Assembly (NCBI RefSeq): GCF_965641715.1
Contig: NZ_OZ282453.1
Direction: 5' to 3' (one strand)
Length of the DNA stretch: 64,000 nt
DNA from: Escherichia coli
GTDB taxonomy: Bacteria > Pseudomonadota > Gammaproteobacteria > Enterobacterales > Enterobacteriaceae
Made by a program: the position numbers and the translations under genes. The notes beneath the pieces were generated by a model. The model saw only the letters and a list, made by a program, of their open reading frames with translations, did not search any database and was not told the DNA's origin. Shown here piece after piece: positions 24,371 to 39,530 of the stretch; the first letter of the stretch is position 1, and each line of letters begins with the position of its first letter.

Positions 24371-24887
24371 CGTAGCATGCTGGCTCACCGGAAAGGACCC
24401 GCAAACAACAGGAATTATCGATATCAAATATCAATGTCTCAACCTGGTGAGGTGACAAACGAATTAATGTAAATTTGAGAGCGTAGCAACCATTCGGACA
24501 CGCTAATCTCAGAGCCACCATGAGACACCTCATAATCAATAGTAATTCATCGAGCTCCAGCCAGTCGCTTGTTTCAGTAGAAAAGCCAACTGTATATACT
24601 GGTAATCCGATACACTTTCAACTAGTCGGAAATTTTTAAACACTTCACAAATTGTACGTGTAAAGAATAGCTTAAAGTAATATATAATCCGTTTCTTTGC
24701 CGATTGTCTTACGTCTGTCTCACAATCTTTAATATGGTGTATCTGCAATAACTTCTATCCATATGAGTAAGAAGATACAATCCACCATCAAATATCATTG
24801 ATTAACCACTTAATAATACATCCACGAAATCGTTTTATTTGTTAAACTACAGCAGTCTGTTATTGATAGACCGCTGTAACAAAAGTC

Positions 24888-25895
24888 TTAATTGGATGAA
24901 AAGTAAAGAGTTGTACTGGGGTATGCAAAATCTGCTTTGTGATTATGCACAATATCAACAATTCTCAGATAAACTTTTTGCTGAATGTCAAGCCACTCCT
25001 CCCAGTCCCTTGTATAAGTGAAACAATACACCATAATATTCAATGAGGAATCCCCAAACTCGTTAAAATAAACAAGCAACGTCTGTCTTTGATCTATACT
25101 CTCTTCATGCATAAGATAATTACGAATATCTTCCACAATGAGCGAAATTTTTTTAGAATCCTCATATCGTAAACCAATCGTTGTTTTTATTCTCCTATTA
25201 GTCATTCTACCAGGGTTTTCTAAAGAAATATCAGAAAATAATGAGTTTGGGATATACATTGGCCTGTTTTCAAAAGTAATTACCTTTGTCAATCTCCAGC
25301 CGATTTCAGCAACAACACCCTCGATATTTCTATCCGGTGAACGAATCCAATCACCAATGTTAAATGGACGATCAAAATATAGCATAACACCAGAGAAGAA
25401 ATTACTTAGAATATCTTTGCCAGCCATGCCAACAGCGATACCCCCAATCCCACCAAAGGCAAGCAACCCGGAAAAACTCATGCCAACTTGCTGGCCGAAA
25501 ACCAATAAAGATATCAATAAAACTATTATTTTTAGAACTTTTGAAATTACTCTTGAATCAGTTACATCACGCCCTTTACTTACTTGCCTTCTCTCTAAAT
25601 AATCAATAACAATAAATGCCTTTCGTATAAAAACAGTAACAATCAACAATATTGAAAGTATCCTTACCACTGTCCTGGAAAGATATTTTATGTGAAAACC
25701 ATCGATTAAAAAAGACAAGTAATCTCCGATCAAAATAATAATACACGACCAGAGAAGTAAACTTAACAAACATCCAATAACTATGTAGTTCTTCTTACTA
25801 AAGCGAACCATGTAAAAATTAACAACAAGCGCAACAATAGCCAACAGCATAAAAATTACGCCAAGTGAGTTATGAATAAAAACATCGCGAAACAT
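24888..25895 (-). CDS. MscS-family mechanosensitive channel-like membrane protein (AT-rich moron between lysis genes and cos)
   Basis: N-terminal TM helices, then the MscS core FGGIGGIAVGMAGKDILSNFFSGVMLYFDRPFNIGDWI...EGVVAEIGWRLTKV...IPNS; ATG at 25895 preceded by AGGTGA. Confidence 0.8.
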   Translation of the reverse strand: MFRDVFIHNSLGVIFMLLAIVALVVNFYMVRFSKKNYIVIGCLLSLLLWSCIIILIGDYLSFLIDGFHIKYLSRTVVRILSILLIVTVFIRKAFIVIDYLERRQVSKGRDVTDSRVISKVLKIIVLLISLLVFGQQVGMSFSGLLAFGGIGGIAVGMAGKDILSNFFSGVMLYFDRPFNIGDWIRSPDRNIEGVVAEIGWRLTKVITFENRPMYIPNSLFSDISLENPGRMTNRRIKTTIGLRYEDSKKISLIVEDIRNYLMHEESIDQRQTLLVYFNEFGDSSLNIMVYCFTYTRDWEEWLDIQQKVYLRIVDIVHNHKADFAYPSTTLYFSSN

Positions 25896-26412
25896 CAATA
25901 TCACCTATATATCAACTACATAGAAATACTACCACCCCCTTCACAAAAAAAACAAGCAAGTAAGCACATCTTTATTTGTAAAACAATTATACATTAGGCC
26001 AAATCGACGAAAACAATCATACATTCTCATTTTACAATAAAGAATTTCTAAAACAAAAAGATACTTATATAAAATCAGCAATACGGCGCTTTCAGGTTAT
26101 ATATGCTCCATACCCCTTTACGAAGGGGAAACCAATAAACCAATCTGATGACCTAGTCAACCAATGGATGCTCAATACGTTCACCATTTTTAGCAATTTC
26201 CACTCATACAGTCAGAAATTAAACAAGCTGTGATCATATTCATGGTTTATTCCTTTTAGTGATGAACCTTGCGCACAGGAATAACCAGCCAGAGAGGGTT
26301 AACCAGACCACTACCGGTTTTCCTCAAGACTCATCCTGAAAGGTTCTCTGTTCTGTATGCACTGTGCGAAGTGCAAAAAATAAGGCCGCAGAAGCGACCT
26401 TTTCCGATGCGT

Positions 26413-26967
26413 TTACAAACCAACACGCGCTTTCATCCAGCCATAGACAAAGGACTCGTTAGCCTCACGTTTCTCTGCCAGCGCCAGATAACGCTCCCCC
26501 TGTGTACAGTTCAGTGCTGTCAGCATCACCAGTTCGCCATCTTTACCGCGTTTTTCCAGGAATACACGTAGTGCGTTAATGGTTCGTGGGCCGATACACC
26601 CGTCTGTATCCATGTCCGGATACAGCATCCCCTTCTGGTTAAATACATTCAGCCAGCGCTGAAGCATCTTTGCCGCAACTGCCGGCCCCATGTTCACACC
26701 CGTGTCGCAAAGCTCTGCGGCAATGTCCGCAGACAGGTTTGCCACCTTGTCGAAATTCGGTCCGTACCAGTAGTCTGCCTCCAGAATTTCCAGCGCCTGC
26801 CCGCGGCTCAAATCACGCATATCGCCACGGTACCCATGTGACCGCGCCACTTTTTCAGTTATGCCCCACTTCGTTGCACCACCTGTATCGTCAGGGTGAC
26901 TGACGTAGCCCCCCTCTTTTCCCAGGATTTCATCAAAAACTTCATCTCTCGATTTCATATCAGCCAC
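26413..26967 (-). CDS. Endolysin, glycoside hydrolase family 108-like with peptidoglycan-binding domain
   Basis: N-terminal EGGYVSHPDDTGGATKWGIT motif typical of GH108; position in the lysis cassette. Confidence 0.7.
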   Translation of the reverse strand: MADMKSRDEVFDEILGKEGGYVSHPDDTGGATKWGITEKVARSHGYRGDMRDLSRGQALEILEADYWYGPNFDKVANLSADIAAELCDTGVNMGPAVAAKMLQRWLNVFNQKGMLYPDMDTDGCIGPRTINALRVFLEKRGKDGELVMLTALNCTQGERYLALAEKREANESFVYGWMKARVGL

Positions 26968-27238
26968 TCAGTAAGGCAAAAATTTTTGAAACATTACCGC
27001 GCGCACGAACAACCAGCACGCAGAACACCAGATTAATCATGACGACCAGCCAGTTACCGGGAAGGATTGTGCCGCAGAGAAAGGCAAGTGGCGGAAGTGC
27101 ATATACCGTCATCAGCAGCCAGGCCAGCAATGACACCAGCGGCTTATGTCTGGAATCACGACGACGATAAAAAAATAGCGTTGGCACGATAAACGAGCAC
27201 AACGCTACATTCAGCAATCCGGGAAGATTATTTGCCAT
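26960..27238 (-). CDS. Small membrane protein of the lysis cassette (holin/antiholin-like)
   Basis: About 92 aa, 2-3 predicted TM segments; translationally coupled between the holin and the endolysin. Confidence 0.5.
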   Translation of the reverse strand: MANNLPGLLNVALCSFIVPTLFFYRRRDSRHKPLVSLLAWLLMTVYALPPLAFLCGTILPGNWLVVMINLVFCVLVVRARGNVSKIFALLSG

Positions 27239-27617
27239 TACCACCACCTCCCCGTTGACGGGAGAACAGACCGGATACCAGCGATGTAATATCCTGCTGA
27301 TGGATGAATGACAGGACCTTTACTGAAACCACCGACACCAGTACTGCACACAACGCATCAACGGAAGCGCTGTCAAACCCAATACGCTCCGCCATATACC
27401 CCGCCACACCACGGGCCCCAAGAACACCAACAATAAAGGACACCAAGAAATGTGCAGCCACACGCCAGGCTGAAAGCGTCTGCGGCATTGTTGCCACAAA
27501 CAGCGCACCGGCAAAGGCACCAAACACAATCCCGAAATCCGTTCCGGTGAACAGCCCGAATACCGTCGCCCCGCCGAGCGCCGCGGCCGTACCGGAACCG
27601 GACAAGGGTTCAGACAT
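27228..27617 (-). CDS. Putative holin (start at MSEPLSGSG after AGGAG)
   Basis: 129 aa, Gly/Ala-rich TM helices, C-terminal charged tail; directly upstream of the endolysin. Confidence 0.6.
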   Translation of the reverse strand: MSEPLSGSGTAAALGGATVFGLFTGTDFGIVFGAFAGALFVATMPQTLSAWRVAAHFLVSFIVGVLGARGVAGYMAERIGFDSASVDALCAVLVSVVSVKVLSFIHQQDITSLVSGLFSRQRGGGGNGK

Positions 27618-27863
27618 ACCTTTTTTCTCCTGTAAATAAAAAAGAGCCACCAGCGGCCCACCAAAAAACACCCCGTCAAAGACACCTGCACCCACAGATG
27701 CCTTTTGTGTGGTGTTATTCAGATTTGCGCAGTAAAGGCCAGAGAACAACCATCACCATCGCTACCAGCACGCCATCAGCCAGAACCGACATCAGCCGTC
27801 CGGCAAAATCTACTGCCACTACCAGAAACAGCAGGATGGCAGCCAGCACAAGACGTGCACTTT

Positions 27864-28289
27864 TCACAGATACTGCTCCAGTGGTAACTGAAGCGCCTGT
27901 GCAATTTTCTTGAGCTGCGCTTCTTCATCCGGACTAATGCTATCCTGGTCAGCGATATCCAGACAGAGGCACAGTACGTCAACCGCCTCTGTTGTCCCTG
28001 CCACGTCAGCCAGCTGACGGAGGGCTTCAGCATTGGCAGAACGCGGGGATGCTTCATAACGGGCGCGGATATTGGCGCTCATCTGGGCAATCTCACCTGA
28101 GAACAGCGCAAAGGCCGGAAGTGCTGCAATGGTTTTCTCCAGCACTGCGATTTCTTTCGCGTCGCAGGTACCGTCAGCATATGCAATGGAATATGCGCCC
28201 CAGACGGTCGCTTCCACCGCATCGCGATTTTCCATCTTCTTCACCTCAACAATCGCCTTGCAGGTTTTCTTTTTGAAAATACCAAACAT
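27864..28289 (-). CDS. Hypothetical late-region protein (possible TerB-like fold)
   Basis: 141-aa ORF from MFGIFKKKTC with RBS; acidic helical protein; TerB assignment is a guess from composition only. Confidence 0.4.
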   Translation of the reverse strand: MFGIFKKKTCKAIVEVKKMENRDAVEATVWGAYSIAYADGTCDAKEIAVLEKTIAALPAFALFSGEIAQMSANIRARYEASPRSANAEALRQLADVAGTTEAVDVLCLCLDIADQDSISPDEEAQLKKIAQALQLPLEQYL

Positions 28290-28462
28290 CGTGACGTTTC
28301 CTTTTAGTGGGAGAGCCTCGCCCCGGGATGAGCAGCCCACAGAGAAAGTCACACCGACCATCCCGTAAGCTCCCCCCCCCTGAAAGGCTCTGTGGTTTTT
28401 GATGTGCACCGGACGTGGCGCGGATATGAAAAAAGCTCGCAGTAGCGGGCCTGGCTACAGGC

Positions 28463-28488
28463 AAAAAAATACCCGTCCGGAGACGGGC
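28463..28488 (-). terminator. Rho-independent terminator (minus strand)
   Basis: Minus strand GCCCGTCTCCGGACGGG hairpin followed by TATTTTTTT. Confidence 0.5.
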
Positions 28489-28533
28489 TAACACATTCAA
28501 CATGTAAGAGTGGAACAGCGTTTATTTTAAGTA

Positions 28534-28620
28534 TGGTCGCCGCCAGAATGAGTCGTCAGATTGCAACGCAATTCTGGCAAATCGCAGGCACCAAAACAGG
28601 CAACGACTCATTCTGGCAAC
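28534..28620. repeat. 15-bp perfect inverted repeat (GCCAGAATGAGTCGT / ACGACTCATTCTGGC) with nested alternative pairing and direct repeats, followed by a T-run
   Basis: Read directly: arms at 28534-28548 and 28595-28609; ATTCTGGCA and GGCAACGAC each occur twice. Confidence 0.7.
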
Positions 28621-28773
28621 GACTTTTTTCCAATAACGCAACTTCATGAACAAAAAAAAGAACAGCACTGTATCCGCTATTGCAGAATGGAGAACAATAA
28701 AAAACCTGAACTATTATTCAACTCGGAAAACCGCCAGTGCTGTAAAAGTCCGTCAGAAATAAAACAATGAAGT

Positions 28774-28850
28774 TGTGGAGAACAGGAATCGAACCTGCAT
28801 CGCCAACCCAGAAGGCTGCGGTAATAGCTACTATACGATACCTGAATAAA
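28774..28850 (-). tRNA. tRNA-like sequence, probably a 3' fragment or pseudo-tRNA (canonical T-arm, no acceptor stem found)
   Basis: Minus strand GCAGGTTCGATTCCTGT T-arm preceded by CCTTCTGG; no complementary 5' acceptor strand could be found by eye. Confidence 0.3.
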
Positions 28851-29358
28851 GAGCAGGCCTCCGTAACCACAATAATGATACTGATAACAGACCTTCAATA
28901 TGATTGAACGGAAGCCTACAATGAACCGCAAGACAGCGGGGAACACCGCTGTGAACATAAACTTGCTGTCTTCCGGGTCGGGAGTAATATTACCGATAAT
29001 TCATATGACATCAAAAACTAATTAGTTTTCAGATTTAAAAATATGTATAAATCTGTATCAATTACATACAGTTTATGTTATTCCATCCAGAATTCTGATT
29101 TCGCACAGGAGATTGCGTAAAAACTAACACAAATATAAACGATTTGGGAACACACTGATTCAGTTGTCGCAATAAATAACAGGAAACACTCCGGGAATAA
29201 CAGATCGCAAGACTTACATCAGCAGGAGTTTTTGCAACATTTAACGTTAATTGTATCGTTGATAGAAAATCTATGACGCAATATGGTGAACTAACAGAGC
29301 CTGACGAATATCCCAATTACGCCGAGCTAATAGCGCTGCCAGCTAAACTTGCATGGAA

Positions 29359-29435
29359 TGGTCCGCCACCGGGTGCTCGAACCTCGCACAATCAACTTAG
29401 AAGGCTGATGCTCTATCCAGATGAGCTGGTGGCGG
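29359..29435 (-). tRNA. tRNA-Arg (anticodon UCU)-like, phage-encoded; T-stem imperfect
   Basis: Acceptor stem CCGCCAC/GTGGCGG, D-arm GCTC-ATCTGGATA-GAGC, anticodon loop CTTCTAA, 3' ACCA; two mismatches in the T-stem. Confidence 0.55.
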
Positions 29436-29437
29436 AA

Positions 29438-29513
29438 TGGTGGCCCTTGCTGGATTTGAACCAGCGACCTGGCGATTATGAGTCGCTCGCTCTAACCACT
29501 GAGCTAAAGGGCC
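29438..29513 (-). tRNA. ileZ: tRNA-Ile2 (anticodon CAU, ileX/ileZ-like), phage-encoded
   Basis: Minus strand GGCCCTTTAGCTCAGTGGTTAGAGCGAGCGACTCATAATCGCCAGGTCGCTGGTTCAAATCCAGCAAGGGCCACCA is near-identical to recalled E. coli tRNA-Ile2. Confidence 0.85.
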
Positions 29514-29553
29514 GGGCGCAGGATAATAACGGTACGTAACTAATTCTGCAAGT

Positions 29554-30612
29554 TCATCCGTTCTGACTGACTAAATCCTGTACTTCCCTGACCGTCTGCT
29601 CAAAACGCTCAGTCTCCAGCTCAACACCAATCACACGACGTCCCTGCGCCATCGCTGCTTTGACTGTCGAACCTGACCCCATGAAGAAATCTGCAACCAG
29701 GTCTCCCGGACGGCTGCTTGCGCTGATTATCTGCTGCAACATTTCTGCCGGTTTTTCGCACGGGTGCTTCCCGGGATAGTACTGCACCGGTTTATGCGTC
29801 CACACATCGGTGTACGGCACCTGCACAGTCACACCGAAATACCGCCGCAAATTTTTATATTCACTCAGCAGTTCCGTATACTGCCGGTTCAGTTCACTGT
29901 ATGTGCTGACCAGTTGGTAATGTGGCTTTTCCAGTTCTCCGCACTGGTGCTTCTCTTCTGCCACTCGGGCAAACAGTGCCTGTAATTTCAGATAATCGCT
30001 TTCATTCGGTAGCTGCCACTGACTGGCACTGAACCAGTGCGACACCATGTTTTTCTTTCCTGTAGCATCCACAATCTGTTTTGCCGTAATCCCCAGGGCC
30101 GCACGCGCATCACAAAAGTAAGAAATCAGCGGGGCCATCACATGCTGTTTCAGAGCCCTGCCCTTTGCCGCATAGCCATCATTTTTTAGCTGATATGGCC
30201 CCTGATAATGTCCGGCAAACAGAATGCGCTCTGTTGCCGGAAAATACGCCCGCAGGCTTTCCTTGTTGCACCCGTTCCAACGTCCGGACGGCTTCGCCCA
30301 GATGATATGGTTAAGCACGTTGAAACGTTCACGCATCATGATCTCAATATCAGATGCCAGGCGATGTCCACAGAACAGGTAAAGGCTTCCGGCAGGTTTC
30401 AACACCCGCCAGAACTGGGCCAGACAGTGGTCCAGCCACTTAAGGTAACCTTCGTCCCCTTTCCACTGATTGTCCCAGCCGTTGGGTTTCACCTTGAAGT
30501 ACGGCGGATCGGTAACAATCAGGTCAATGGAATCATCAGGCAGGGACTGAATAAAATGCAGGCAATCAGCGTTGATCAAATCAACACTGTTTATTTTTAC
30601 AGTATTTTTCAT
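29554..30612 (-). CDS. Orphan DNA N6-adenine methyltransferase (DPPY motif)
   Basis: IDLIVTDPPYF catalytic motif and C-terminal FFMGSGST AdoMet motif; no adjacent restriction enzyme gene. Confidence 0.85.
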   Translation of the reverse strand: MKNTVKINSVDLINADCLHFIQSLPDDSIDLIVTDPPYFKVKPNGWDNQWKGDEGYLKWLDHCLAQFWRVLKPAGSLYLFCGHRLASDIEIMMRERFNVLNHIIWAKPSGRWNGCNKESLRAYFPATERILFAGHYQGPYQLKNDGYAAKGRALKQHVMAPLISYFCDARAALGITAKQIVDATGKKNMVSHWFSASQWQLPNESDYLKLQALFARVAEEKHQCGELEKPHYQLVSTYSELNRQYTELLSEYKNLRRYFGVTVQVPYTDVWTHKPVQYYPGKHPCEKPAEMLQQIISASSRPGDLVADFFMGSGSTVKAAMAQGRRVIGVELETERFEQTVREVQDLVSQNG

Positions 30613-30762
30613 GGATCAGTAAGCGTAACTCTGGTAGGCTCACTCTGCTTTTGCGCTAAAGCAGTGGGCCGTGGTTCGCTTGTGACCAGTAAGCATGAGC
30701 GAATGGCTGGCAGGTGCTACCAACACCCACCAGCCGCCCATTTTCACAGCAGGAAACCGCCA

Positions 30763-30990
30763 TTACTGGCAGCGTCTGAATTTATTCCCGTACCCGCCGT
30801 TATCCTTCGCCAGACCCGCCAGAACTAACTGAGTCAGTATTAACTGGCACTGGGCTTCGCTTACTCCGGTAGTTCTCGTCATCATGCGTGGCGTTACCCA
30901 CTTGTCAGCAGGTAAGAAATGAAGGACTGCGGCGGCGGTTTCTGTCATATCTTGCTGTTTTAGCATGTCTTTTTCCCTTCTGGTTAACAT
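30763..30990 (-). CDS. Hypothetical small protein (possible winged-helix DNA-binding)
   Basis: 75-aa ORF between the rexA-like promoter region and the methyltransferase. Confidence 0.35.
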   Translation of the reverse strand: MLTRREKDMLKQQDMTETAAAVLHFLPADKWVTPRMMTRTTGVSEAQCQLILTQLVLAGLAKDNGGYGNKFRRCQ

Positions 30991-31244
30991 GACATACCAA
31001 TAACTCTTGTCTAAAAAGCCAGCAAGATAAAAAGTCAGTATTCACGACCACCAGCGTGTTTACTGTACTGCACCAGGTTTACAGGTACAAAAAACCGCTC
31101 GACGGCGGGTTTAAGCTGTGTGGCGAAGTAACCACTCTTAACAGATTAAGATAAAATTTGCGGACCGCGGTAATTTTTTTTGCTAAATTAAAGCCATATA
31201 AAAAATAAGATCCATAAGAAATTATTAGTATACTAAGGTTTAAC

Positions 31245-32186
31245 ATGGCTACTATTGCGCAATCAAAGAAACAAAAAAAACTTAAAATTGGTTTTTACAC
31301 CAGCAGTTCTGGGACTATCCGCAGCCATTCAGTTGCTAAGCAAGCAATTGAAAATCTGTATAATACTTGCGTAACCGTTACGAATAATCATTTTGATACC
31401 ATCTATAGAAATAAAAAGTTAAAAATAGCTTTTATAAATAAAGATACAAAAGCTAAATATTTCTTCGGCTACATGTCATGCTCACGAGAAGAGTATCTCC
31501 TTCCTTATATTGGTGATGAACACTGGAATGAGCACAACATACCACTAGATGATAAAAAATACATAGTCGAAAGAACCTATTTTTTATATTATTACGATAG
31601 TGATATTTTAATATTAACTCAAAATCATCTTGGGCCGAAAGAATCGGATTTAGCTTATCTGCTTTACAGCCAGAGTGGTAATCCTGGAAATAACTTTTCA
31701 TTCCAAGCCATCTGGAAAAAAGAGAGCGTCAAAGAGCTACTTGAAACAGGAAGTACTTTGAGAAGTTGTGATATTGTCCTGGCTGCTCCCAGGAACTTTG
31801 ATGCAACAAATTACCAGCTAAATAGTTCATTTTCTAAGGAACTGGTAAATATGATGGTAGGGCTGGGTGGAACACGTCTCAAGTTAAATCTAAGGGGACG
31901 TGCATCAGGGAGAGTAAAAGTCAAAGGTTATTTATCAGATCTCGTTAAGGATGGTATTAAAGAACTCCTTGAAAAAATGCCGGGAATTGTAAAAAAAGCG
32001 GCAGTAACACAGCCCAAAAATACCGTTGAACAAAGTCTTCTTGATCAGGTACTCATTTCAGAAAAAAACATATATACCGTTAATGGTTATGGCACTGATA
32101 GTGATGTTCTGCAAGCCATGATTTCTGCTAAAATTGATAACAATGAATACCTTAAGCAATACGATATCAGCAAAAAGAAGGTATAG
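31245..32186 (+). CDS. RexA-like protein (remote homolog of lambda RexA)
   Basis: 313 aa, AT-rich; local matches to recalled lambda RexA (KIGFYTSS vs KNGFYATY; LGPKESDLAYLL vs FGPTTSDLTDFL); 3 nt upstream of the rexB-like gene. Confidence 0.6.
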   Translation: MATIAQSKKQKKLKIGFYTSSSGTIRSHSVAKQAIENLYNTCVTVTNNHFDTIYRNKKLKIAFINKDTKAKYFFGYMSCSREEYLLPYIGDEHWNEHNIPLDDKKYIVERTYFLYYYDSDILILTQNHLGPKESDLAYLLYSQSGNPGNNFSFQAIWKKESVKELLETGSTLRSCDIVLAAPRNFDATNYQLNSSFSKELVNMMVGLGGTRLKLNLRGRASGRVKVKGYLSDLVKDGIKELLEKMPGIVKKAAVTQPKNTVEQSLLDQVLISEKNIYTVNGYGTDSDVLQAMISAKIDNNEYLKQYDISKKKV

Positions 32187-32189
32187 GAT

Positions 32190-32633
32190 ATGTTATTGAA
32201 ATACTTAAGAAACCTGATTGTAAGTGTTTTTTGCACCTTGTTCCTACTGAGGTATATCCCTCAGATGGGGCATGCTGACATACTTACAGCCTCCGGGGTT
32301 ATTTCAACTGTATCCGGTATTTTATTTGGTTTTATTTTAGCCACAATATCAATTTTTAGTGCTGCTAGCGAAAACTCAAATGGAATAATAAAAGCATTAA
32401 AAAACAACAACATACTTCAAGTTATTATTGTAAATCTATTAACCGCAGGTGCATCTTTAATTACGGCATGCGTTATTGCTTTGATAGCAATGTTTGCCAA
32501 TGAAAAGACATTGTTACATGGAGAAAAAATAGAATTTATTTTAATTATCGAATCTTTATCTCTTCTTATCATTTCAGTAATAACTTTTGCCTTTACATGG
32601 AGAAAAGTAAACTGGATACTCCCCCACATTTAA
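32190..32633 (+). CDS. RexB-like 4-TM membrane protein
   Basis: 147 aa; N-terminal LIVSVFCTLFLLRYIPQ vs recalled lambda RexB VIVSICYLLFRHYIPG; multi-pass TM, similar length (lambda RexB is 144 aa). Confidence 0.65.
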   Translation: MLLKYLRNLIVSVFCTLFLLRYIPQMGHADILTASGVISTVSGILFGFILATISIFSAASENSNGIIKALKNNNILQVIIVNLLTAGASLITACVIALIAMFANEKTLLHGEKIEFILIIESLSLLIISVITFAFTWRKVNWILPHI

Positions 32634-32656
32634 AAAGGGCAGAAATGCCCTTTTTT

Positions 32657-33019
32657 CTACTCCATTTCAAGTTTAACATCCAGCATTGAAAGGCATCCAT
32701 CAATAAACCCTTCAGCCATCTGTATCTCTATACGTATCAATTTCTCATCTTTTTTGCGAGCTCTTGCAAGCTTTCTTTTCGAGATGCCATACAGGTAATG
32801 GGCCACAATCAAAGAATGCTCGTACGGTTTTCGCTTTTTAAGAAGAGCAAGACAACCTTCAATAATTAATGCATCACTATCTGAACAAGCCTGACGTGTT
32901 TTGCTTGTATAGGGAAGAAGCCCTTTAAACCCAGCAGCTATAGGAGAATAGTCTACTCCTGAACTATCACTCGCCGCCCATGCTCCCCAACGATCCAGAA
33001 CCATTTGAATATCACGCAT
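32657..33019 (-). CDS. Antitermination protein Q (QuuD-like family)
   Basis: MRDIQMVLDRWGAWAA...AEGFIDGCLSMLDVKLEME resembles DLP12 QuuD; position after rusA/DUF968. Confidence 0.75.
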   Translation of the reverse strand: MRDIQMVLDRWGAWAASDSSGVDYSPIAAGFKGLLPYTSKTRQACSDSDALIIEGCLALLKKRKPYEHSLIVAHYLYGISKRKLARARKKDEKLIRIEIQMAEGFIDGCLSMLDVKLEME

Positions 33020-33036
33020 CAACTTTCTCCACAAAA

Positions 33037-34032
33037 TCAGGCCAGCACGCCAATTGCCAGCGCACGATCGATAAAACGAAATATCAGCTCCAGCTGGGAG
33101 CCATACCTCTCTTCAAATGCCACGGTATCCGCATGCAGCTCGTCGTGATGCTTTCTGCACAAAGGCAACACAAAAAGGTCATGCGCTTTTGTACCCATTC
33201 CACACTGACCGTGGCCTATCAGGTGGTGGGGATCATCAGCGGGCTTTCCACAACATGCACACGGCTGTGTCTTAACCCAGCGCGTGTACTTTTCATTAAC
33301 CCAGCGGCGACGTTTTGGGCGTAACATAAAAGACTCCGGCGACTCCGGATCCACTTTCAGCGCCAGCACCTTTTTCGCTTTATCCTGGATGATGCTGGTG
33401 GCAGGAACCGAAGGCACAAGGTCACTTTCCCGGGTGACAGACGGCACAACAGGCTTCGGTAATCTCAGTGCCTTACGGGCTGCACTTTCCGGTAAGGCAT
33501 CCGCCAGATCATTACGAATCAGCCACCAGCACAGTTCCGGCATTGTCACAACGTGACTGTCATCAAAACCGAGATCCCGACGCACAACAGACAACACCCA
33601 GCGGGCACAGTTATCCGTTGCCATTGATTCCAGCCGTTCCGTGAACTGATCGCGCAGCTGGTTATCGCAGTGCCAGCACAGACGGATTGCGCCCGGAGCG
33701 TGTCGCATTGTGGTCATGTTCTCGCTGTGCCAGTCGGAATGAGGCCACTGGCAGCCTTTTTCACGAAGTAACCAGCTTTCAAGACATTCCACGCCACCAG
33801 CACGACGGATCACTGCCTCATTGCGGAACACGGCCCGAACGGCAGGATCATCCGCCAGCGGTTGTGATGCCGCCGGAACGGCACCACTGGCGAAAGATGA
33901 ATAACGTTCCGGCTCAGGCTCCAGCAGGACACGCCCCTGCATAAACAGGGGCATCAACTCTGAACCTGGCCTGAACAATACGATCCCCATACGCGGGGCA
34001 ATTTCAGGGGTCAGTAGTGCTCTCACGGTCAC
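33037..34032 (-). CDS. DUF968-domain protein (YdfU-like) with C-terminal Cys/His cluster
   Basis: CACCGKPADDPHHLIGHG...CRKHHDELH motif; typical nin-region gene of lambdoid prophages. Confidence 0.6.
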   Translation of the reverse strand: MTVRALLTPEIAPRMGIVLFRPGSELMPLFMQGRVLLEPEPERYSSFASGAVPAASQPLADDPAVRAVFRNEAVIRRAGGVECLESWLLREKGCQWPHSDWHSENMTTMRHAPGAIRLCWHCDNQLRDQFTERLESMATDNCARWVLSVVRRDLGFDDSHVVTMPELCWWLIRNDLADALPESAARKALRLPKPVVPSVTRESDLVPSVPATSIIQDKAKKVLALKVDPESPESFMLRPKRRRWVNEKYTRWVKTQPCACCGKPADDPHHLIGHGQCGMGTKAHDLFVLPLCRKHHDELHADTVAFEERYGSQLELIFRFIDRALAIGVLA

Positions 34033-34033
34033 C

Positions 34034-34831
34034 TCAATGAACGGTATCGAGCAGCTTTAACAGCTCAGGGAATCGGGATTCGAAGAAATGCGGCTGCGTC
34101 TCGCGCGGATTTGCGGGACTGGTGATATTCTTGCCGAACATGCAGCCTTTCGCTGTCAGCGACCAGAATTTTTTGATGTTGTTAATCGCGGTACGGCTGT
34201 ATCGTTCGCGCTGCTCGACGATCCCCAGCTTCACCATCTGGTGATATGCCTGATTAGCTGTCAGGCGGATACCATACTGCTTCAGCAGTGCACTCAGTGA
34301 CAGCGTGGGGCGGCTTGAGCCATCAGGCGCGTCAGCAGGAGCATCAATGGCATAGCGCGGTGCCAGATTCGGTAAGCCAACAGCCTCCTGAAGCTTCTGA
34401 CAGGCTCCAAGCACTGATGAGTTAGACAGGTTTAATTCCCGGCGCATAAAGTCCAGCAGGATCACACCAGCCTGCATCTTGTCAGCAGCCTGTCCGGATA
34501 ATTTTTCCGGTGCGCTGGTTACCATGTCGAAAGTACGGATCACCTTCAGATGGAATGACGGGCTGATCCACATTGCATAGGCATACACCAGTTCTTTGCA
34601 GACATACGTCCCCTGGTTATTTCCGCCACGAATAACGTTAACTGGCTCTATATTGACCGAGTTGCAAATCTGCAACTCGCTTATTAAACGCTCAGTTTGC
34701 TCATTGCGGAGCCAGAATGCAGGCTTATGCTTATCCAGAGAACCAGCAGCCCTGTGCAGATCGTTCAGGCTGTAACGCCCATAAGCATCACGACGAACTT
34801 CAATACCATCAATAACCATCAGATTATTCAT
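34034..34831 (-). CDS. KilA-N domain protein
   Basis: N-terminal MNNLMVIDGIEVRRDAYGRYSLNDLHRAAG... KilA-N-like. Confidence 0.5.
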   Translation of the reverse strand: MNNLMVIDGIEVRRDAYGRYSLNDLHRAAGSLDKHKPAFWLRNEQTERLISELQICNSVNIEPVNVIRGGNNQGTYVCKELVYAYAMWISPSFHLKVIRTFDMVTSAPEKLSGQAADKMQAGVILLDFMRRELNLSNSSVLGACQKLQEAVGLPNLAPRYAIDAPADAPDGSSRPTLSLSALLKQYGIRLTANQAYHQMVKLGIVEQRERYSRTAINNIKKFWSLTAKGCMFGKNITSPANPRETQPHFFESRFPELLKLLDTVH

Positions 34832-34850
34832 ACTTCGTTTCTCCTCTTAA

Positions 34851-35240
34851 TCAGGCGGCTGCACCCGCCGGTTTCTCATACTTACTGATAGTGATCTCGA
34901 CCTTCCCTTTCGGGATAACCGGTCCCCACTCCACCAGCATTCTTTTCACCTGTCTGTCGTCTTCCCACACACCCGCGTGGGTCAGGGCGTCAAACAGCGC
35001 CTTGTTATAGTTGTCCAGATCGCGGATCCGGTTATCCGGAGGAAACAACACGATCTCCACTGAAGCAGGTGCCGACGTTGGTTTCGGCAGACGACGTAAC
35101 TGCTCAACTATTGCTGCGCATGCCGCGCTCTGGAATTTGCGCCCCGCTGCGCTTATCAGACTCTTACCAGCAAACGCCCCTTTGTTGGGGTGTCGCCAGT
35201 ACGTGTTCACGCTGGGCGGGAAAGGCAGGATCAGCTTCAT
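34851..35240 (-). CDS. rusA: Holliday junction resolvase RusA
   Basis: 129 aa starting MKLILPFPPSVNTYWRH with conserved acidic residues (DLDNYNKALFDAL). Confidence 0.9.
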   Translation of the reverse strand: MKLILPFPPSVNTYWRHPNKGAFAGKSLISAAGRKFQSAACAAIVEQLRRLPKPTSAPASVEIVLFPPDNRIRDLDNYNKALFDALTHAGVWEDDRQVKRMLVEWGPVIPKGKVEITISKYEKPAGAAA

Positions 35241-35563
35241 ACTTTCAGGCCCCTCTCATGTAACCAGTGGGCTGCACGCAGTCTGGCGTTTTCCTCACCG
35301 GCAAGCAGTGCGCGGATAATCCCGGCTGCCTCGCTGTCGTCGTCCTTCACTGTGGTATGAAGCGTGATACCCCGGGCCACGCCACGCTTTATCGTGATGA
35401 CGCCTTTTTTCTCCAGTGCGCGAAGATGCTCCACCGCTGCATTCACCGAACGGTATCCCAGCATGGCTGCCACCTCCTGATTGGTTGGCGGGAAACCACG
35501 TTCTTTCTGATAAGAAATCAGCATATCCAGCACCTGCTGCTGGCATTGAGTTAACGTCGTCAT
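35237..35563 (-). CDS. LexA-type winged-helix DNA-binding protein
   Basis: LTQCQQQVLDMLISYQKERGFPPTNQEVAAMLGYRSVNAAVEHLRALEKKGVI resembles the LexA N-terminal domain. Confidence 0.6.
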   Translation of the reverse strand: MTTLTQCQQQVLDMLISYQKERGFPPTNQEVAAMLGYRSVNAAVEHLRALEKKGVITIKRGVARGITLHTTVKDDDSEAAGIIRALLAGEENARLRAAHWLHERGLKV

Positions 35564-36057
35564 TAAGCCCCCACGTAATTCCCTGACAGATACCACTCAT
35601 CACCCGATACAGCGCGCTTGCTGCTTTTCCGTAAACACTGCTCACGACGCGCCAGAAAATTGTTTCGTTCTGGCTGGGAGTGGCTTTCACGGAATGCCGC
35701 CATCCACACCGTTGCAGCACGACGGTATAAGCCCCTGGACTCCAGTTCTTCAGCCTGGCGGGTCAGGCACAAAATCACACGGGGATCGTTAGTGCCGACA
35801 TAGAAATTGCGCACAGGTCTGGTTTCACGAACAGATTGTGGTTCCGGCTCCTGCGCTCTCTCAGTCAGGCGCGGGAAATGTCTGCGTGTATCTCCTTCAC
35901 AACGGTGAGCCACACGCCCACTCTGACGTAACTTGCTTGCTGACTGCAGAACGCGCTGCCGTGAGTAACCAGCAAAAGCATCCGCAATGTCTCCGGAAGT
36001 ACACCCCGGATGGGCTTCAATGAATTTCTGAACTTCATTCAAAAGACTCATAATCAC
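35563..36057 (-). CDS. PerC/ANR-like transcriptional regulator
   Basis: C-terminal QAEELESRGLYRRAATVWMAAF motif, PerC-like. Confidence 0.45.
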   Translation of the reverse strand: MIMSLLNEVQKFIEAHPGCTSGDIADAFAGYSRQRVLQSASKLRQSGRVAHRCEGDTRRHFPRLTERAQEPEPQSVRETRPVRNFYVGTNDPRVILCLTRQAEELESRGLYRRAATVWMAAFRESHSQPERNNFLARREQCLRKSSKRAVSGDEWYLSGNYVGA

Positions 36058-36872
36058 CCCCTGAATCCTGCCGGGATCTGGCTGTAGTCCACGTTGTCGT
36101 AACTGGCTTTGAAGTACGGGTCCTCGCGTCTGGCTGCAGATACCGCAGGAACTTCCCAGGATTCTTCGAAATGACGATCCGGACCAAAGAACGTGACAGC
36201 CTGTTTCACAAATTGTGTGCCGCTGTTACCCATCGCAGATACCCAGCCCGCGTAGCGTTTCACACCTTCCAGCATGGTTTCGGGGTTTACCCCCTCATTC
36301 AAACGGGCTTTCCAGGCTTTGAAGGCTGCAGATTTTGAATTACCACCAGCACGTTTGGGATATGCCAGCCATGCCTGCTCAAACTCCGGAGAGTATTCCG
36401 GCCGGTTTGAACGAACTCGCACGGACTCATCAACTGATGCACCAACAGCTATTGGTTCATTGACTGGTTCTTTGACTGGTTCAAAAGAGTGACTGGTTCT
36501 GGGTGAATCTCCTGCACTACCCCCTGGTGCAACTCCTGCACTACCTGGTGAATTTGCTGCACCAGATAGTGAATTATTTGCACTACCCCCTAGTGAATCT
36601 CCTGCACCATCCAGATGAAGGAGATAGATATTACTTGAGTTACCTTTTTCACCTTTCCGGGTGACTTTTTTTACCAGCCCGGACTCACAAAGGGCCGCAA
36701 TATGATTCATCACAGAACGTTTGCTAATCTCGCACTGGTCAGCAATATGCTGGTAGCTGGGCCAGCACTCACCCTGATCGCTGGCATTATCAGCCAGCTT
36801 GATCAGAACCAGTTTTCGCAATGGATTACCCACTCGAATTTTCATCGCTTTAACCATCAGCTCCATACTCAT
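36054..36872 (-). CDS. Phage replication protein (N-terminal HTH, C-terminal DnaT-like domain)
   Basis: N-terminal HTH (SYQHIADQCEISKRSVMNHIAAL); C-terminus ends DYSQIPAGFRG, like host DnaT (QIPPGFRG) at 57453. Confidence 0.7.
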   Translation of the reverse strand: MSMELMVKAMKIRVGNPLRKLVLIKLADNASDQGECWPSYQHIADQCEISKRSVMNHIAALCESGLVKKVTRKGEKGNSSNIYLLHLDGAGDSLGGSANNSLSGAANSPGSAGVAPGGSAGDSPRTSHSFEPVKEPVNEPIAVGASVDESVRVRSNRPEYSPEFEQAWLAYPKRAGGNSKSAAFKAWKARLNEGVNPETMLEGVKRYAGWVSAMGNSGTQFVKQAVTFFGPDRHFEESWEVPAVSAARREDPYFKASYDNVDYSQIPAGFRG

Positions 36873-37105
36873 GCTGCACCTCCGAGATGCTTCATGTTTT
36901 TTCCGGAGCGAAAGGTTATAAGCGGCATACTGACGCGGTAATTACGGCCCAGCGGTTCACAAATCACCTTCTGACATTCACGGTCCACCAGGCTAACACG
37001 TAGAACATGCCCTGCGGGCGTGGTGTACCACTGACCAACGGTAGGAATTGATGTTTTTTTACGCTGAAGCAAACGGCAAATATTGAGGATCAACGGATTA
37101 AGCAT
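36869..37105 (-). CDS. Hypothetical protein
   Basis: 78-aa ORF translationally coupled (ATGA overlaps) within the early-right operon. Confidence 0.4.
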   Translation of the reverse strand: MLNPLILNICRLLQRKKTSIPTVGQWYTTPAGHVLRVSLVDRECQKVICEPLGRNYRVSMPLITFRSGKNMKHLGGAA

Positions 37106-37934
37106 GACGATGCCCTCCGCTGATATTCAGGAAACGGTGAATATGAAGATTAGCCTTATCCGCCAGACGAATACGTTCAGCCTGCAAGTTAAGAAGGGTT
37201 TCTACCAGAACCTGATGCGCCTGCGGATCCGAAAGAGTTACCTTGCGCAGAGCACGTAGTGCAGTTGTTACATAGCTGAGTTTATGTAAGTCTTCATCAT
37301 TCAGACGAGTGAGGGCTGGGACAGTAGCCATGATGGCAGCCTCCGTATGCAATGGATAACTTCCACCACCGGAAACGCCAATTTCGCTGGTGGTGAACTG
37401 AGCAGGGTTGGCGTAACCGGCGCATACGGAAACCGGCGCACCTTTCGGTGCCCCCACCCAGCCCACCATAATTTGGGTATAGCTGAGTTGTAGCAACAAA
37501 AAAGACGCTAACGCGCCAATTGTCGCCGTATGCAATTCCAGGACGCCAATCCCGGCACCCGCTTTATAAGGTGCCTGAACAGTGTAACGTCCCGGAATGG
37601 CAGAATCAATGTGCTGGTGGTCCTTCACACTCAACAAAATCACGCCTGAATTTCCACAAAGGGCTAAAGCACTCATGCGGGTAGTCTTTGCGAAGATAGA
37701 TAACGCGCTGTGTTTCTGGTTCCCAACGAATAACATGGACATAAAGCCCTCTTCCGTCACGAAACCAGCGGTTAAGTTCCCGCACAACTCGCCCCCCACA
37801 GTCAGGTAAAGTTCTCTGTGGTTACTTACAGCCAGGTGATTTGGTAATCTGCATTCATGCCGTAACAACAGGTGTTCAGCGACACTGACCACCAGCTGTT
37901 GCGACAAACGGTTATTTGCCGTTAAACTGTTCAT
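37098..37934 (-). CDS. Hypothetical early-right operon protein (YdaU-like by position and size only)
   Basis: 278-aa ORF coupled to flanking genes; no motif recognised. Confidence 0.5.
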   Translation of the reverse strand: MNSLTANNRLSQQLVVSVAEHLLLRHECRLPNHLAVSNHRELYLTVGGELCGNLTAGFVTEEGFMSMLFVGNQKHSALSIFAKTTRMSALALCGNSGVILLSVKDHQHIDSAIPGRYTVQAPYKAGAGIGVLELHTATIGALASFLLLQLSYTQIMVGWVGAPKGAPVSVCAGYANPAQFTTSEIGVSGGGSYPLHTEAAIMATVPALTRLNDEDLHKLSYVTTALRALRKVTLSDPQAHQVLVETLLNLQAERIRLADKANLHIHRFLNISGGHRHA

Positions 37935-38494: not shown

Positions 38495-38525
38495 CGTTCT
38501 GTGGTTAAAAATTGAAGGTGTTCTG

Positions 38526-38726
38526 TTAATCTTTCGGATAGATATCCGGCCTTAAGTCAGATTTCGTAATTGCACCTGACGTGCATTGCTCAAGTTTTTT
38601 CGCCAGCACAAAACTGGCTTTTTTATAACCATTGAAAACCAGCCGTAAGTAGCCAGGTGTTGAGCCAACTTTTCCGGCCAACTCGCCCTGCTGTTCTTTG
38701 GTTAAAGAGTCCCAATACGCTTTCAT
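38526..38726 (-). CDS. Cro/YdaS-like HTH regulator
   Basis: 67 aa starting MKAYWDSLTKEQQGELAGKVGSTPGYLRLVFNG; GGAGG RBS; divergent from cI. Confidence 0.75.
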   Translation of the reverse strand: MKAYWDSLTKEQQGELAGKVGSTPGYLRLVFNGYKKASFVLAKKLEQCTSGAITKSDLRPDIYPKD

Positions 38727-38729
38727 ACA

Positions 38730-38800
38730 ATATGTACCTCCGATATACATATTACATGATTGAAATGAACCTTCAAGATACTTGTACCTTATCGGTACAA
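38730..38800. promoter_or_regulatory. Immunity switch operator/promoter region with two palindromes (ATATGTA-N9-TACATAT; TTGTACC-N5-GGTACAA)
   Basis: Inverted repeats read directly between divergent cro-like and cI starts. Confidence 0.6.
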
Positions 38801-39527: not shown

Positions 39528-39530
39528 TAC

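Follow-up and report, generated by a model that had tools for sequence, protein, structure and literature searches.

Our analysis indicates, with a probability that we put at roughly 0.8, that in the region described here a lambda-like prophage of pig-associated Escherichia coli has, in its late operon, a tRNA-and-cargo ("moron") slot built by recombination from modules circulating among such prophages; argO has been swapped out of this slot and tciA/tciB are carried as its cargo. The locus itself is ordinary. The unexpected part is a conserved, unannotated structured RNA unit in supposedly empty DNA, and its structured leader offers a modest new lead.

The elements of the locus in Table 1 all lie on the minus strand of the window (the whole stretch of 64,000 nucleotides that was analysed). 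Q is followed by an inserted gene pair on the opposite strand, a 933W-like stretch with qut and the first terminator, a small ORF, the methyltransferase and pT; then come tRNA-Ile2(CAU), tRNA-Arg(UCU), a replacement segment of about 900 bp, tciA, tciB, the holins and the endolysin. This exact arrangement was found in only seven genomes, all of pig origin, when 5,426 complete E. coli genomes were searched. The corresponding stretch of 933W has the final base of the annotated pR' as its first position and contains the annotated qut and terminator; in the window, a terminator scan placed a terminator-like hairpin inside it (31094-31106). The promoter scan did not list pT, whose match to the consensus is too weak. 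The flanks proposed by the first-pass annotation, i.e. a methyltransferase, an acidic protein of 141 aa and a lysis cassette, were all borne out; the protein has a pI of 4.7, and the cassette consists of two holins and a GH108 endolysin. It had also placed one small gene before the lysis cassette: the 141-aa gene is there, but it is followed by a second small gene, tciB. The EC416 prophage, 97.9% identical to the window over 26424-42798 and elsewhere not fully collinear, aligns at a constant offset with part of the window only.

Table 1. Features of the tRNA-and-cargo locus, listed in the direction of the minus strand
Feature	Position	Strand	Basis
Late-gene antiterminator Q	32657..33034	-	Pfam Phage_antitermQ 5e-52; PGAP: antiterminator Q family protein
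933W-like stretch just downstream of pR' (qut and first terminator)	31084..31143	-	80.6% identity to 933W (L007, 2194-2254)
N6/N4 DNA methyltransferase	29554..30612	-	Pfam N6_N4_Mtase 2.5e-43; 87-88% nucleotide identity to Stx2 phage methylase
Putative tRNA promoter pT (TTGCAG, 17-nt spacer, TATTAT)	29523..29551	-	Aligns with putative pT of 933W, 1 mismatch in 29 positions
tRNA-Ile2 (anticodon CAU), ileZ homologue, apparently intact	29438..29513	-	ARAGORN; Rfam 72.7 bits; PGAP tRNA-Ile
tRNA-Arg (anticodon UCU), argN scaffold, damaged in the window's lineage	29359..29435	-	ARAGORN tRNA-Arg (tct); Rfam 32.3 bits; PGAP tRNA-Arg
Segment A, non-coding	29077..29358	-	84-91% identity to L003, L012, L014, L049, L051
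Conserved promoter-like block: TGATACAGATTTATACATAT (29041-29060), -35 TTGATG (29009-29014), -10 TAATAT (28987-28992)	28987..29060	-	
Leader hairpin 1, conserved loop motif UGUUCACAGnGGUGUU	28923..28979	-	Helices 1 and 2 of consensus structure
Leader hairpin 2, variable-length loop	28853..28919	-	Helix 3
Pseudo-tRNA, apparently dead, on the Gly(UCC)/Arg(UCU) scaffold of the module tRNA	28781..28839	-	Rfam 23.1 bits, model positions 7-64; alignment to intact copies
Trailer closed by ACAGCACTG / CAGTGCTGT and a T-run (terminator 1)	28651..28743	-	All 11 representative sequences that were folded keep the stem and the T-run
Perfect 15-bp inverted repeat GCCAGAATGAGTCGT / ACGACTCATTCTGGC, loop of about 46 nt	28542..28617	-	Read from sequence
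Terminator 2, strong intrinsic terminator-like hairpin	28463..28488	-	Scan: 7-bp stem, 5 GC pairs, then T7; conserved in YC21
Terminator common to 933W and E203449 (follows argO there)	28429..28450	-	Homology to L002 resumes; 933W terminator annotated at the corresponding place
tciA-like gene (TerB family, 141 aa, pI 4.7)	27864..28289	-	phrog_632 7e-63; Pfam TerB 5.9e-7
tciB-like gene (DUF3927, 50 aa, membrane peptide)	27715..27867	-	Pfam DUF3927 1.6e-15; phrog_1470 2.5e-24
Lysis cassette: Phage_holin_8, Phage_holin_3_7, GH108 endolysin	26413..27617	-	Pfam 5.9e-22, 6.2e-20, 1.1e-24

The resemblance to the Q-tRNA-stx-S region of Shiga toxin phages, which had been noticed from gene order, goes beyond a similar order: sequence comparison indicates true homology, since many Stx2 phages match the methyltransferase-ileZ-argN block at 87-88% identity over 1.3 kb, and the qut/terminator stretch, pT and the terminator that follows argO are also conserved. 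As in 933W and other Stx2 phages, the cassette is preceded by Q and the methylase and followed by the cargo and the lysis genes, its second tRNA is built on the argN scaffold (60/77 identity), and the putative pT and the post-cassette terminator have been kept. The window differs from 933W in the absence of stxA, stxB, nanS-p and argO, in its second tRNA (UCG in 933W, UCU with a damaged T arm here), and in about 900 bp of unrelated DNA that separate the cassette from its terminator. It therefore has the Q, qut-tR', methylase and ileZ-argN backbone of a Shiga-toxin-converting prophage without stxA/stxB. The search for stx remnants supported the earlier claim that toxin genes are missing: tblastn with Stx2A, Stx2B and NanS-p against the whole window gave a best E value of 0.39, with no Stx2A or Stx2B match in the gap itself, and blastn with the 933W stx-nanS region gave no matches in the window.

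The toxin position had been described as empty or occupied only by the 141-aa acidic protein; this protein is present, but the slot is not empty, as it carries tciA/tciB. On comparative evidence, this content is a standard non-toxin alternative and not the scar of a lost toxin, because many non-Stx prophages have tciA/tciB directly behind an intact argO. Non-Stx lambda-like prophages of human ETEC (e.g. E203449, B7A) share with the window both the methyltransferase-ileZ-argN-...-terB-DUF3927-holins order and the cargo, and their sequences on both sides of the gap are 84-87% identical to it. They differ in retaining an intact argO, with only about 175 bp between argO and terB, where the window has the replacement segment; the intact ileZ-argN-argO-terB-DUF3927-holin cassette occurs in many human ETEC genomes. 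The cargo of Stx-phage-like slots was seen to vary (stx, tciA/tciB, or nothing).

The tciA-like product is identical to TciA of phage P1 at 117 of 141 positions (83%; about 80% at the DNA level), and its gene overlaps the tciB-like gene by 4 nt, the two forming a TciA/TciB cassette. Their putative function (tellurite/colicin resistance or cell-division inhibition) is assigned solely by homology, in the P1 annotation as well as here. The P1 cluster dmt-trnA-trnT-tciA-tciB-tciC-trnI likewise combines a DNA methyltransferase and accessory tRNAs, including tRNA-Ile2(CAU), with tciA/tciB. It has a different gene order, other tRNAs (Asn, Thr) and tciC, which has no counterpart in the window; moreover, the cluster is part of the C1-controlled ban operon of a phage that is not lambda-like. 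Literature searches on ileZ/argN/argO and on tciA/tciB returned nothing relevant.

Among the three tRNA elements, only the ileZ homologue looks fully functional. Its identification as tRNA-Ile2(CAU), proposed from the sequence at the outset, agrees with ARAGORN, Rfam and PGAP (the PGAP tRNA-Ile and tRNA-Arg calls come from a strain 99.9% identical over the region). It is identical to 933W ileZ at 75 of 76 positions and to P1 trnI, annotated as tRNA-Ile2, at 66 of 76, and it forms a complete cloverleaf, the Rfam match covering model positions 1-71 (gathering score 29). Read from the sequence, its acceptor stem GGCCCUU/AAGGGCC contains the pairs C4-G69 and C5-G68, which we take to be those used by TilS and to mark an Ile2 rather than a Met tRNA. 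Orthology with ileZ and trnI, together with these pairs, indicates that the CAU tRNA is Ile2 and not Met.

The second gene, correctly placed by the first-pass annotation two nucleotides from tRNA-Ile2, was also called by ARAGORN, and its imperfect T stem is real: in the Rfam alignment two of the five pairs of CGAGG/ACCCG are mismatched, 53:61 among them. Its Rfam score compares with 54.8-59.4 bits in relatives (933W, E203449, LR21, L012, L049). The lineage-specific changes include U8C (position 8 is T in every relative compared) and the conversion of the T arm from GAGTCCTCG to GAGCACCCG. The acceptor stem (CCGCCAC/GTGGCGG) with its encoded CCA, the D and anticodon stems and the Arg anticodon are intact; a functional tRNA-Arg would also have U8, a T stem of five pairs that include G53-C61 and a score at the level of its orthologues, all of which this gene lacks. 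The lesions are confined to the window's lineage and fall on conserved sites (U8, the T stem and its 53:61 pair), and the tRNA is probably impaired. It may nevertheless retain some function, since it passes the Rfam threshold of 29 and is annotated as a tRNA by PGAP.

The third element had been described as a 3' tRNA fragment without an acceptor stem. The acceptor stem is indeed gone, but more than a 3' piece survives, as the D, anticodon and T arms are all present. ARAGORN made no tRNA call for 28781-28839, the Rfam score is below the gathering score and the z-score of the fold is -0.87. Nor is this a decayed third Arg tRNA of the 933W set: the relic is identical to the Arg(UCU) tRNA of another prophage module at 58 of 76 positions, to Gly(UCC) forms at 54-56 of 76, and to argO at only 48 of 77. 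The DNA on its flanks shows homology with the tRNA-Gly module but none with the surroundings of argO, which has been cleanly replaced; a decayed argO was rejected on these grounds. The suspicion of tRNA decay was thus well founded, with the argN-like tRNA damaged and the third element apparently dead. A further ARAGORN call (27767-27858) was rejected, being 92 nt long, lying inside the tciB/DUF3927 coding sequence and having no Rfam match.

Between argN and the tciA-like gene lie about 1070 bp, of which about 900 bp contain no credible ORF. The earlier description, about 500 bp of AT-rich DNA with no convincing ORF and then a fragment, was right on composition and coding potential but too short for the whole stretch; the GC content is 40% in the gap, 20% in the promoter-like block and 51% in the window. 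Four candidate ORFs in 28455-29358 had no Pfam or PHROG match and are not conserved in relatives. One, an 84-aa ORF with a TTG start, was rejected because it is absent from relatives; another, of 93 aa, because it has no ribosome-binding site, starts in the loop of hairpin 1, crosses the tRNA relic and overlaps stems with compensatory substitutions. Neither is the AT-rich DNA mere filler, as about half of the 500 bp consists of the conserved promoter-like block and an RNA leader supported by covariation.

Comparison with the intact cassettes revealed a clean replacement, in which about 900 bp of foreign DNA stand in the place of argO and the junctions lie at 29357 and 28454; the terminator shared with 933W and E203449 marks the right-hand junction. 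The replacement starts with segment A (GC 39%), which is shared only with prophages carrying the UCU form of argN, contains no conserved ORFs and is interrupted by IS1 in LR-21-1. Towards its other end, the inverted repeat is kept in YC21-type copies with compensating changes at its ends. Most likely, the segment came from another prophage lineage, the tRNA of its promoter/leader/tRNA/terminator unit being already dead.

Most of the gap is, as judged from its relatives, a recurrent module composed of a promoter-like block, a two-hairpin leader, a tRNA and a trailer with a terminator. Its closest counterpart is a prophage tRNA-Gly(UCC)/tRNA-Arg(UCU) module (YC21-F17, K99B, WAT; IMG/VR L039, L040), unannotated apart from the tRNA, to which the window is 66% identical over about 610 bp and with which it shares the promoter-like block, the two-hairpin leader, the tRNA position, the trailer and the terminators. 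The difference lies in the tRNA, which in the window is apparently dead (acceptor stem lost, Rfam 23 bits); the leader structure is present, without an intact tRNA between it and the trailer. The promoter-plus-leader part was found, unannotated, in 51 of the 5,426 complete genomes. Two scans over 100,044 species, each represented by one genome, gave no matches and two matches, respectively, and the module looks confined to Escherichia prophages. It was observed mainly in livestock E. coli.

The promoter-like block is the most conserved block across the 21 module copies and is nearly invariant between groups that differ by 30-35% elsewhere. In the window the upstream signature of the module is present as TGATACAnATnTATACAnATnTTnAAA at 29034-29060, followed by TTTTGATG at 29009-29016. 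The block matches 8 of 12 consensus positions, which is below the threshold of the scan, and its activity as a promoter is one that we infer; both this assignment and that of pT are weak consensus matches. It was rejected as the late promoter pR', because the 933W-like stretch that follows pR' (qut, first terminator) is located at 31143-31084 and because the module occurs with unrelated Q types. CTGT-N11-ACAG at 29053-29071 has a spacing that is presumably wrong for E. coli LexA, and a LexA box was therefore rejected. The rrn/nut boxA TGCTCTTTA just 3' of the hairpin 2 stem was attributed to chance, as it is not conserved in other variant groups.

The structure of the leader is supported by covariation. 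Compensatory changes were found at 6 of the 10 pairs of helices 1 and 2 (hairpin 1) and at 3 of the 9 pairs of helix 3 (hairpin 2; 95.7% of cells paired), i.e. at 9 of 19 pairs overall. In total, 96.7% of cells are paired, compared with 22-46% when the partners are slid, and none of 500 shuffles reached the observed values, which rest on about nine independent, mutually related variant groups. The covariance model R1, built without the window's clade, matches 28845-28986 with 32.8 bits (E = 2.8e-6). In at least four variant groups the module tRNA is apparently dead, and the lesions differ (substitutions, a 2-nt deletion, a large deletion).

Small RNAs are known from the prophage cargo site (AgvB, AsxR, PasA/C/D, STnc100), and 3'ETS-leuZ is a sponge derived from a tRNA spacer (PMC4104026; PMC8550237; bioRxiv 10.64898/2026.05.13.724894). 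The module shares the neighbourhood of the cargo-site RNAs, between Q/pR' and the lysis genes and beside TerB, DUF3927 and tRNAs, as well as their general architecture, in which a short structured RNA is closed by an intrinsic terminator. It differs in having no sequence or covariance-model match to them: the Rfam models of AgvB, AsxR and STnc100 had no match at E <= 1 in 26000-32000 or at E <= 10 in 28400-28760, and PasA, PasC and PasD2 of E2348/69 (taken via the coordinates in the supplement to PMC8550237) gave only chance-level blastn matches in the whole window, with no homologue. AgvB, AsxR, STnc100, PhrS, RprA and RyhB were all rejected, their Rfam matches being below threshold and driven by the terminator; the best match to a related small RNA was that of AgvB in YC21 (17.8 bits, gathering score 56).

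How the locus arose and whether the gap still does anything can be read in other ways. It would be very improbable that the prophage is a former Shiga toxin phage in which stx was lost, the toxin slot left empty and argO is now decaying as the relic. The near identity of the methyltransferase-ileZ-argN block to Stx2 phages, the retained terminator that follows argO in 933W and the TCT at the anticodon position of the relic, as in argO, would fit such a history; against it, no remnant of stx or nanS-p was found in the window at the protein or DNA level, the identity of the relic to argO is at the background level among tRNAs and lower than that to the module Arg(UCU) tRNA, the relic has the leader and trailer of the module tRNA on its flanks, and tciA/tciB stand right behind an intact argO in many non-Stx prophages. 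Finding a tRNA cassette of the Stx-phage type is accordingly no evidence that a toxin was lost, the slot swapping its cargo freely. Within the recombination-built slot that we prefer, the whole 900-bp gap might be inert recombination debris, with nothing in 28455-29358 functional now and the covariation left over from the leader of a long tRNA precursor. This is a real possibility, though short of even odds: the tRNA has died repeatedly and by different lesions, IS1 has entered segment A of LR-21-1, the arrangement is rare, and identity to LR21 is similar in stem (32/38) and non-stem (71/90) columns. The near-invariance of the promoter-like block, compensatory changes in lineages without a tRNA and three separate terminator structures that are still intact argue against it.

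Alternatively, the gap module might still be a working non-coding RNA gene with a predicted transcript of about 330 nt, the leader and/or trailer acting as small RNAs, sponges or a cis-acting element independently of the dead tRNA, a proposal that we regard as somewhat doubtful. The covariation and the recovery of the window's leader by a model built without its clade speak for it, as do the promoter block and loop motif, which are more conserved than the module tRNA itself, and the precedents of tRNA-spacer sponges and cargo-site small RNAs (PMC4104026, PMC8550237). Hairpins are also kept in lineages whose tRNA is dead or deleted: a double change from GC to AT is private to the leader of L010, and in the dead-tRNA clade one pair forms the series AT, GT, GC. 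However, several other pairs are broken in that clade (e.g. 72-140 and 10-64), as expected if selection has been relaxed, the structure may have been needed for tRNA maturation only and be decaying now, the variant groups are few and related, and the strains used for Hfq crosslinking and RIL-seq are absent among the 51 module genomes. Only tentatively, therefore, can the unit at 28650-28980 be proposed as a previously undescribed family of prophage non-coding RNAs (a leader with the UGUUCACAGnGGUGUU loop, a tRNA or its relic, and a terminator-ended trailer), in which the tRNA would be a dispensable processing handle and the leader or trailer the lasting product, e.g. a small RNA or sponge that RNase P or RNase E would cleave out. 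A lasting function of this kind would explain why promoter and hairpins are kept, with compensatory changes, where the tRNA is dead or deleted. This unit is the one part of the locus that could have wider significance, as a working leader or trailer would extend the known small RNAs of the prophage cargo site by a class linked to tRNAs.

Returning to the slot as we read it, argO of a 933W-type cassette would have been replaced by a segment bringing its own promoter, two-hairpin leader, tRNA and terminator. In the lysogen, the putative promoter of the cassette would drive transcription of its tRNAs, to which Q-antiterminated read-through would be added after induction. The Ile2 tRNA is predicted to read AUA once host TilS has turned C34 into lysidine, and the UCU tRNA would read AGA and AGG. 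In the near-identical EC416 prophage, AUA, AGA and AGG occur at 9.3, 5.9 and 4.2 per 1000 codons, about two to three times the E. coli average. None of these codons is present in tciA or tciB, which indicates that the tRNAs do not serve the adjacent cargo and that the rare-codon argument rests on other prophage genes.

Accessory tRNAs of prophages decay piecemeal, intact, impaired and dead copies standing in one locus, so genes annotated as "tRNA-Arg" may not be functional. Anticodons were also found to differ among prophages on each of the two scaffolds, with UCG, UCU or UUU on one and UCC or UCU on the other, which suggests that phage tRNA sets evolve partly by anticodon switching.

The methyltransferase-ileZ-argN block of the window shares 87-88% identity with dozens of Stx2 phages. 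The window also retains several features of phage 933W: its ileZ gene (75/76 identity), the putative tRNA promoter pT (29523-29551, minus strand), the stretch just 3' of pR' comprising qut and the first terminator (80.6% match at 31143-31084), and the terminator following argO (28429-28450, minus strand). The likeness to the Q-tRNA-stx-S layout of Shiga toxin phages, pointed out in the first-pass annotation, therefore reflects true homology. That annotation was right on every main point, since the tRNA genes (including the tRNA-Arg(UCU), which ARAGORN called at the expected place), the methyltransferase and the lysis genes were all recovered. The prophage locus is well known, and we consider the version in the window an ordinary mosaic variant of it. 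Over 3 kb the region matches the chromosome of the pig E. coli strain EC416 at 99.9-100% identity; its counterpart there belongs to a lambda-like prophage flanked by prfC and yjjG. Collinearity of EC416 with the window is not kept everywhere. The complete arrangement occurs in seven of 5,426 complete E. coli genomes, every one from pigs.

Features of the tRNA locus and of the module in the argN-tciA gap (gathering score of the Rfam tRNA model, 29 bits)
Feature	Position	Strand	Evidence or remarks
N6/N4 DNA methyltransferase, 352 aa	29554-30612	minus	upstream of tRNAs
tRNA, anticodon CAU (ileZ-like)	29438-29513	minus	ARAGORN; Rfam tRNA model, 72.7 bits
tRNA-Arg(UCU) (argN-like)	29359-29435	minus	ARAGORN; Rfam tRNA model, 32.3 bits
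Module: AT-rich block TGATACAnATnTATACAnATnTTnAAA ... TTTTTGATG, 16 nt, TAnTAT	29060-28987	minus	nearly invariant, 20% GC
Module: leader, 115-148 nt			after AT-rich block, before tRNA; alignment of 21 copies
Module: tRNA			between leader and trailer; alignment of 21 copies
tRNA-like stretch (relic)	28781-28839	minus	Rfam 23.1 bits, sub-threshold; model positions 7-64 only
Module: trailer, ~100 nt, closed by ACAGCACTG / CAGTGCTGT and T-run	28743-28651	minus
Module: 15-bp perfect inverted repeat, loop ~46 nt	28617-28542	minus	some variant groups
Module: second strong terminator	28488-28463	minus	some variant groups; ~55 nt past inverted repeat
TerB-family protein, 141 aa (tciA)	27864-28289	minus	phrog_632 "tellurite resistance", 7e-63; downstream of tRNAs
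DUF3927 peptide, 50 aa (tciB)	27715-27867	minus	phrog_1470 "TciB-like"; downstream of tRNAs
Two holins and GH108 endolysin		minus	downstream of tRNAs

Searches of the window with Stx2A, Stx2B and NanS-p (tblastn) and with the 933W stx region (blastn) found nothing, and the reported absence of toxin genes stands. The toxin position had been described as empty or holding only a 141-aa protein. It is not empty, and the TerB-family protein is indeed present, but not alone, since the DUF3927 peptide adjoins it. Many human ETEC genomes share the order methyltransferase-ileZ-argN-argO-terB-DUF3927-holins (with an argO-terB spacing of only about 175 bp), which identifies tciA/tciB as a standard alternative cargo of this slot; a decayed toxin locus is accordingly rejected. 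Phage P1 displays the same association (dmt-trnA-trnT-tciA-tciB-tciC-trnI(CAU)), its TciA matching that of the window at 117/141 positions. The tRNAs do not serve the adjacent cargo, because tciA and tciB contain no AUA, AGA or AGG codons; the tRNAs would probably serve other prophage genes instead. In the near-identical EC416 prophage these codons reach 9.3, 5.9 and 4.2 per 1000 (against about 4, 2 and 1 on average in E. coli), and they cluster in Q, the integrase gene, some of the tail genes and the inserted genes of AT-rich composition. Some 85 nt upstream of the start codon of tciA lies a stretch of nine G residues (28372-28380). Pig strains that are near-identical in other respects differ in the length of this run (G7, G8, G9), a difference that may reflect slipped-strand variation or an error of sequencing.

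The argN scaffold carries the anticodon UCG in 933W and E203449, UCU in the window, LR-21-1 and the comparison loci L012 and L049, and UUU in OkiPb01704. In all the other UCU copies the T stem is fully paired (CGAGG/CCTCG), position 8 is T, and the scores are 57.7-59.4 bits. In the window lineage alone, position 8 is C and GAGCACCCG replaces GAGTCCTCG. Two pairs of the T stem, 53:61 among them, are thereby lost, and the score drops to 32.3 bits. The imperfect T stem noted earlier is borne out, and the decay suspected then is seen both here and in the sub-threshold relic. Judged by sequence, the locus would hold one intact, one impaired and one dead tRNA. Decay of argN is recurrent, since its position in EPEC E2348/69 gives no tRNA match at all with Rfam. 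This position (L067, prophage PP5, 1287313-1287411) has ileZ on one side and argO on the other, is unannotated, retains homology to the window, and looks like a case of independent decay. The Gly scaffold likewise occurs with UCC or UCU, the acceptor and T stems showing compensating changes. The variation of both scaffolds was seen by comparing the window with loci L002, L003, L005, L007, L039 and L040. Part of the evolution of accessory phage tRNAs seems to proceed by anticodon switching.

Homology to E203449 and 933W ends two bases past the argN CCA (29357) and restarts at 28454, so that about 900 bp stand in place of argO. The third element in this interval lacks an acceptor stem, as had been noted and as the span of its Rfam alignment confirms: only three of seven pairs can still form, and its fold is no better than that of shuffled sequence (z = -0.87). 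It does not, however, belong to the 933W set. Its identity to argO (48/77) is at the background level among tRNAs, as against 58/76 to the tRNA-Arg(UCU) of the IMG/VR prophages L039 and L040, and argO is rejected as its source; strains YC21-F17 and OkiPb01704 have a tRNA-Gly(UCC) to which the relic is 54-56/76 identical. Its T arm (GCAGG/CCTGT) and TCT anticodon are those of the Arg(UCU) form, as is part of its acceptor strand on the 3' side. These alignments point to derivation of the relic from a different tRNA module. Related prophages carry independent lesions at the same place: substitutions (LR-21-1, L051, L064), a 2-nt deletion in the anticodon loop (L012, L014, L037, L049), or loss of almost the entire tRNA (L010, L030).

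The AT-rich DNA of the gap is not mere filler. Positions 29076-28463 are a 66%-identical homologue of a unit of YC21-F17 which is placed between the methyltransferase and holins and contains an intact tRNA-Gly. Scanning of viral contigs with the most conserved motif, followed by blastn, yielded about 35 further copies of this module in about nine variant groups. Its promoter-plus-leader part is present in 51 of the 5,426 complete E. coli genomes, mostly from cattle and pigs, and is never annotated there; of two scans of one representative genome for each of 100,044 species, the first gave no match and the second gave two. Rfam gave only tRNA matches and chance-level terminator matches within it. 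The small RNAs PasA, PasC and PasD2 of EPEC have a similar neighbourhood (bioRxiv 10.64898/2026.05.13.724894; PMC8550237), but no homologue of them was detected within the window, and the module appears to match no described RNA. YC21-type copies retain the inverted repeat, and the ends of its stem show compensating changes; together with the terminator at 28463-28488 the repeat may represent a further small RNA gene or a target of RNase III. Eight clustered substitutions (28493-28561) set the window apart from other pig strains.

Within the leader, RNAalifold predicted two hairpins (28979-28923 and 28919-28853), with compensatory changes at nine of 19 pairs. When the 3' partners were slid by 1-3 columns, paired cells fell from 96.7% to 22-46% and pairs with compensatory change from nine to 0-3; none of 500 shuffles reached the observed values. 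A covariance model built solely from seven sequences outside the window's clade matched the window at 28845-28986 (32.8 bits, E = 2.8e-6), its only significant match in the 64 kb. The gap is thus predicted to consist mostly of a conserved structured RNA unit, which we regard as a modest, testable lead. The module may still function in the window despite its dead tRNA. The tRNA is less well conserved than the promoter block and the loop motif, and none of the three terminators is damaged; in L010, from which the tRNA has been lost, hairpin 2 carries a double change (GC to AT) private to this locus, and one leader pair passes through an AT, GT, GC series in the dead-tRNA clade. On the other hand, several leader pairs are broken in this clade, and the module genomes listed include no strain used for Hfq crosslinking or RIL-seq (EHEC, EPEC E2348/69).

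The remainder of the gap, segment A (29358-29077, about 280 bp), is shared only with UCU-type prophages (84-91% identity) and contains no conserved ORF, in keeping with the earlier description. It is interrupted by IS1 in LR-21-1, and includes a plus-strand promoter-like site (29259-29287) pointing back into the tRNAs.

Several neighbouring features should also be mentioned. Two inserted genes on the plus strand, opposite to the locus (31245-32633; 34% GC), separate Q from the stretch that is homologous to 933W qut/first terminator. They encode a DUF6731 protein (313 aa) and its 147-aa partner, assigned to phrog_7651 and phrog_8552, two families of unknown function. Other prophages hold different genes at this spot (CPBP protease, DUF4236), and the pair is possibly a defence-type insertion. 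The intergenic space of 98 bp that separates tciB from the first holin gene, where other prophages encode PasD/STnc100-type small RNAs, yielded no detectable RNA of this type in the window; it contains a terminator-like hairpin with a T-run (27644-27659, minus strand). An MscS-family mechanosensitive channel gene (24888-25904, minus strand; 338 aa; Pfam MS_channel domains, 1e-19) is placed in AT-rich DNA between the endolysin and terminase genes, within a stretch (24401-26424) that the EC416 prophage, similar elsewhere, lacks; the gene looks like prophage cargo. Downstream of the prophage, three tandem tRNA-Leu(CAG) genes (52029-52351, plus strand) form a leuQPV-type cluster and are ordinary host genes.
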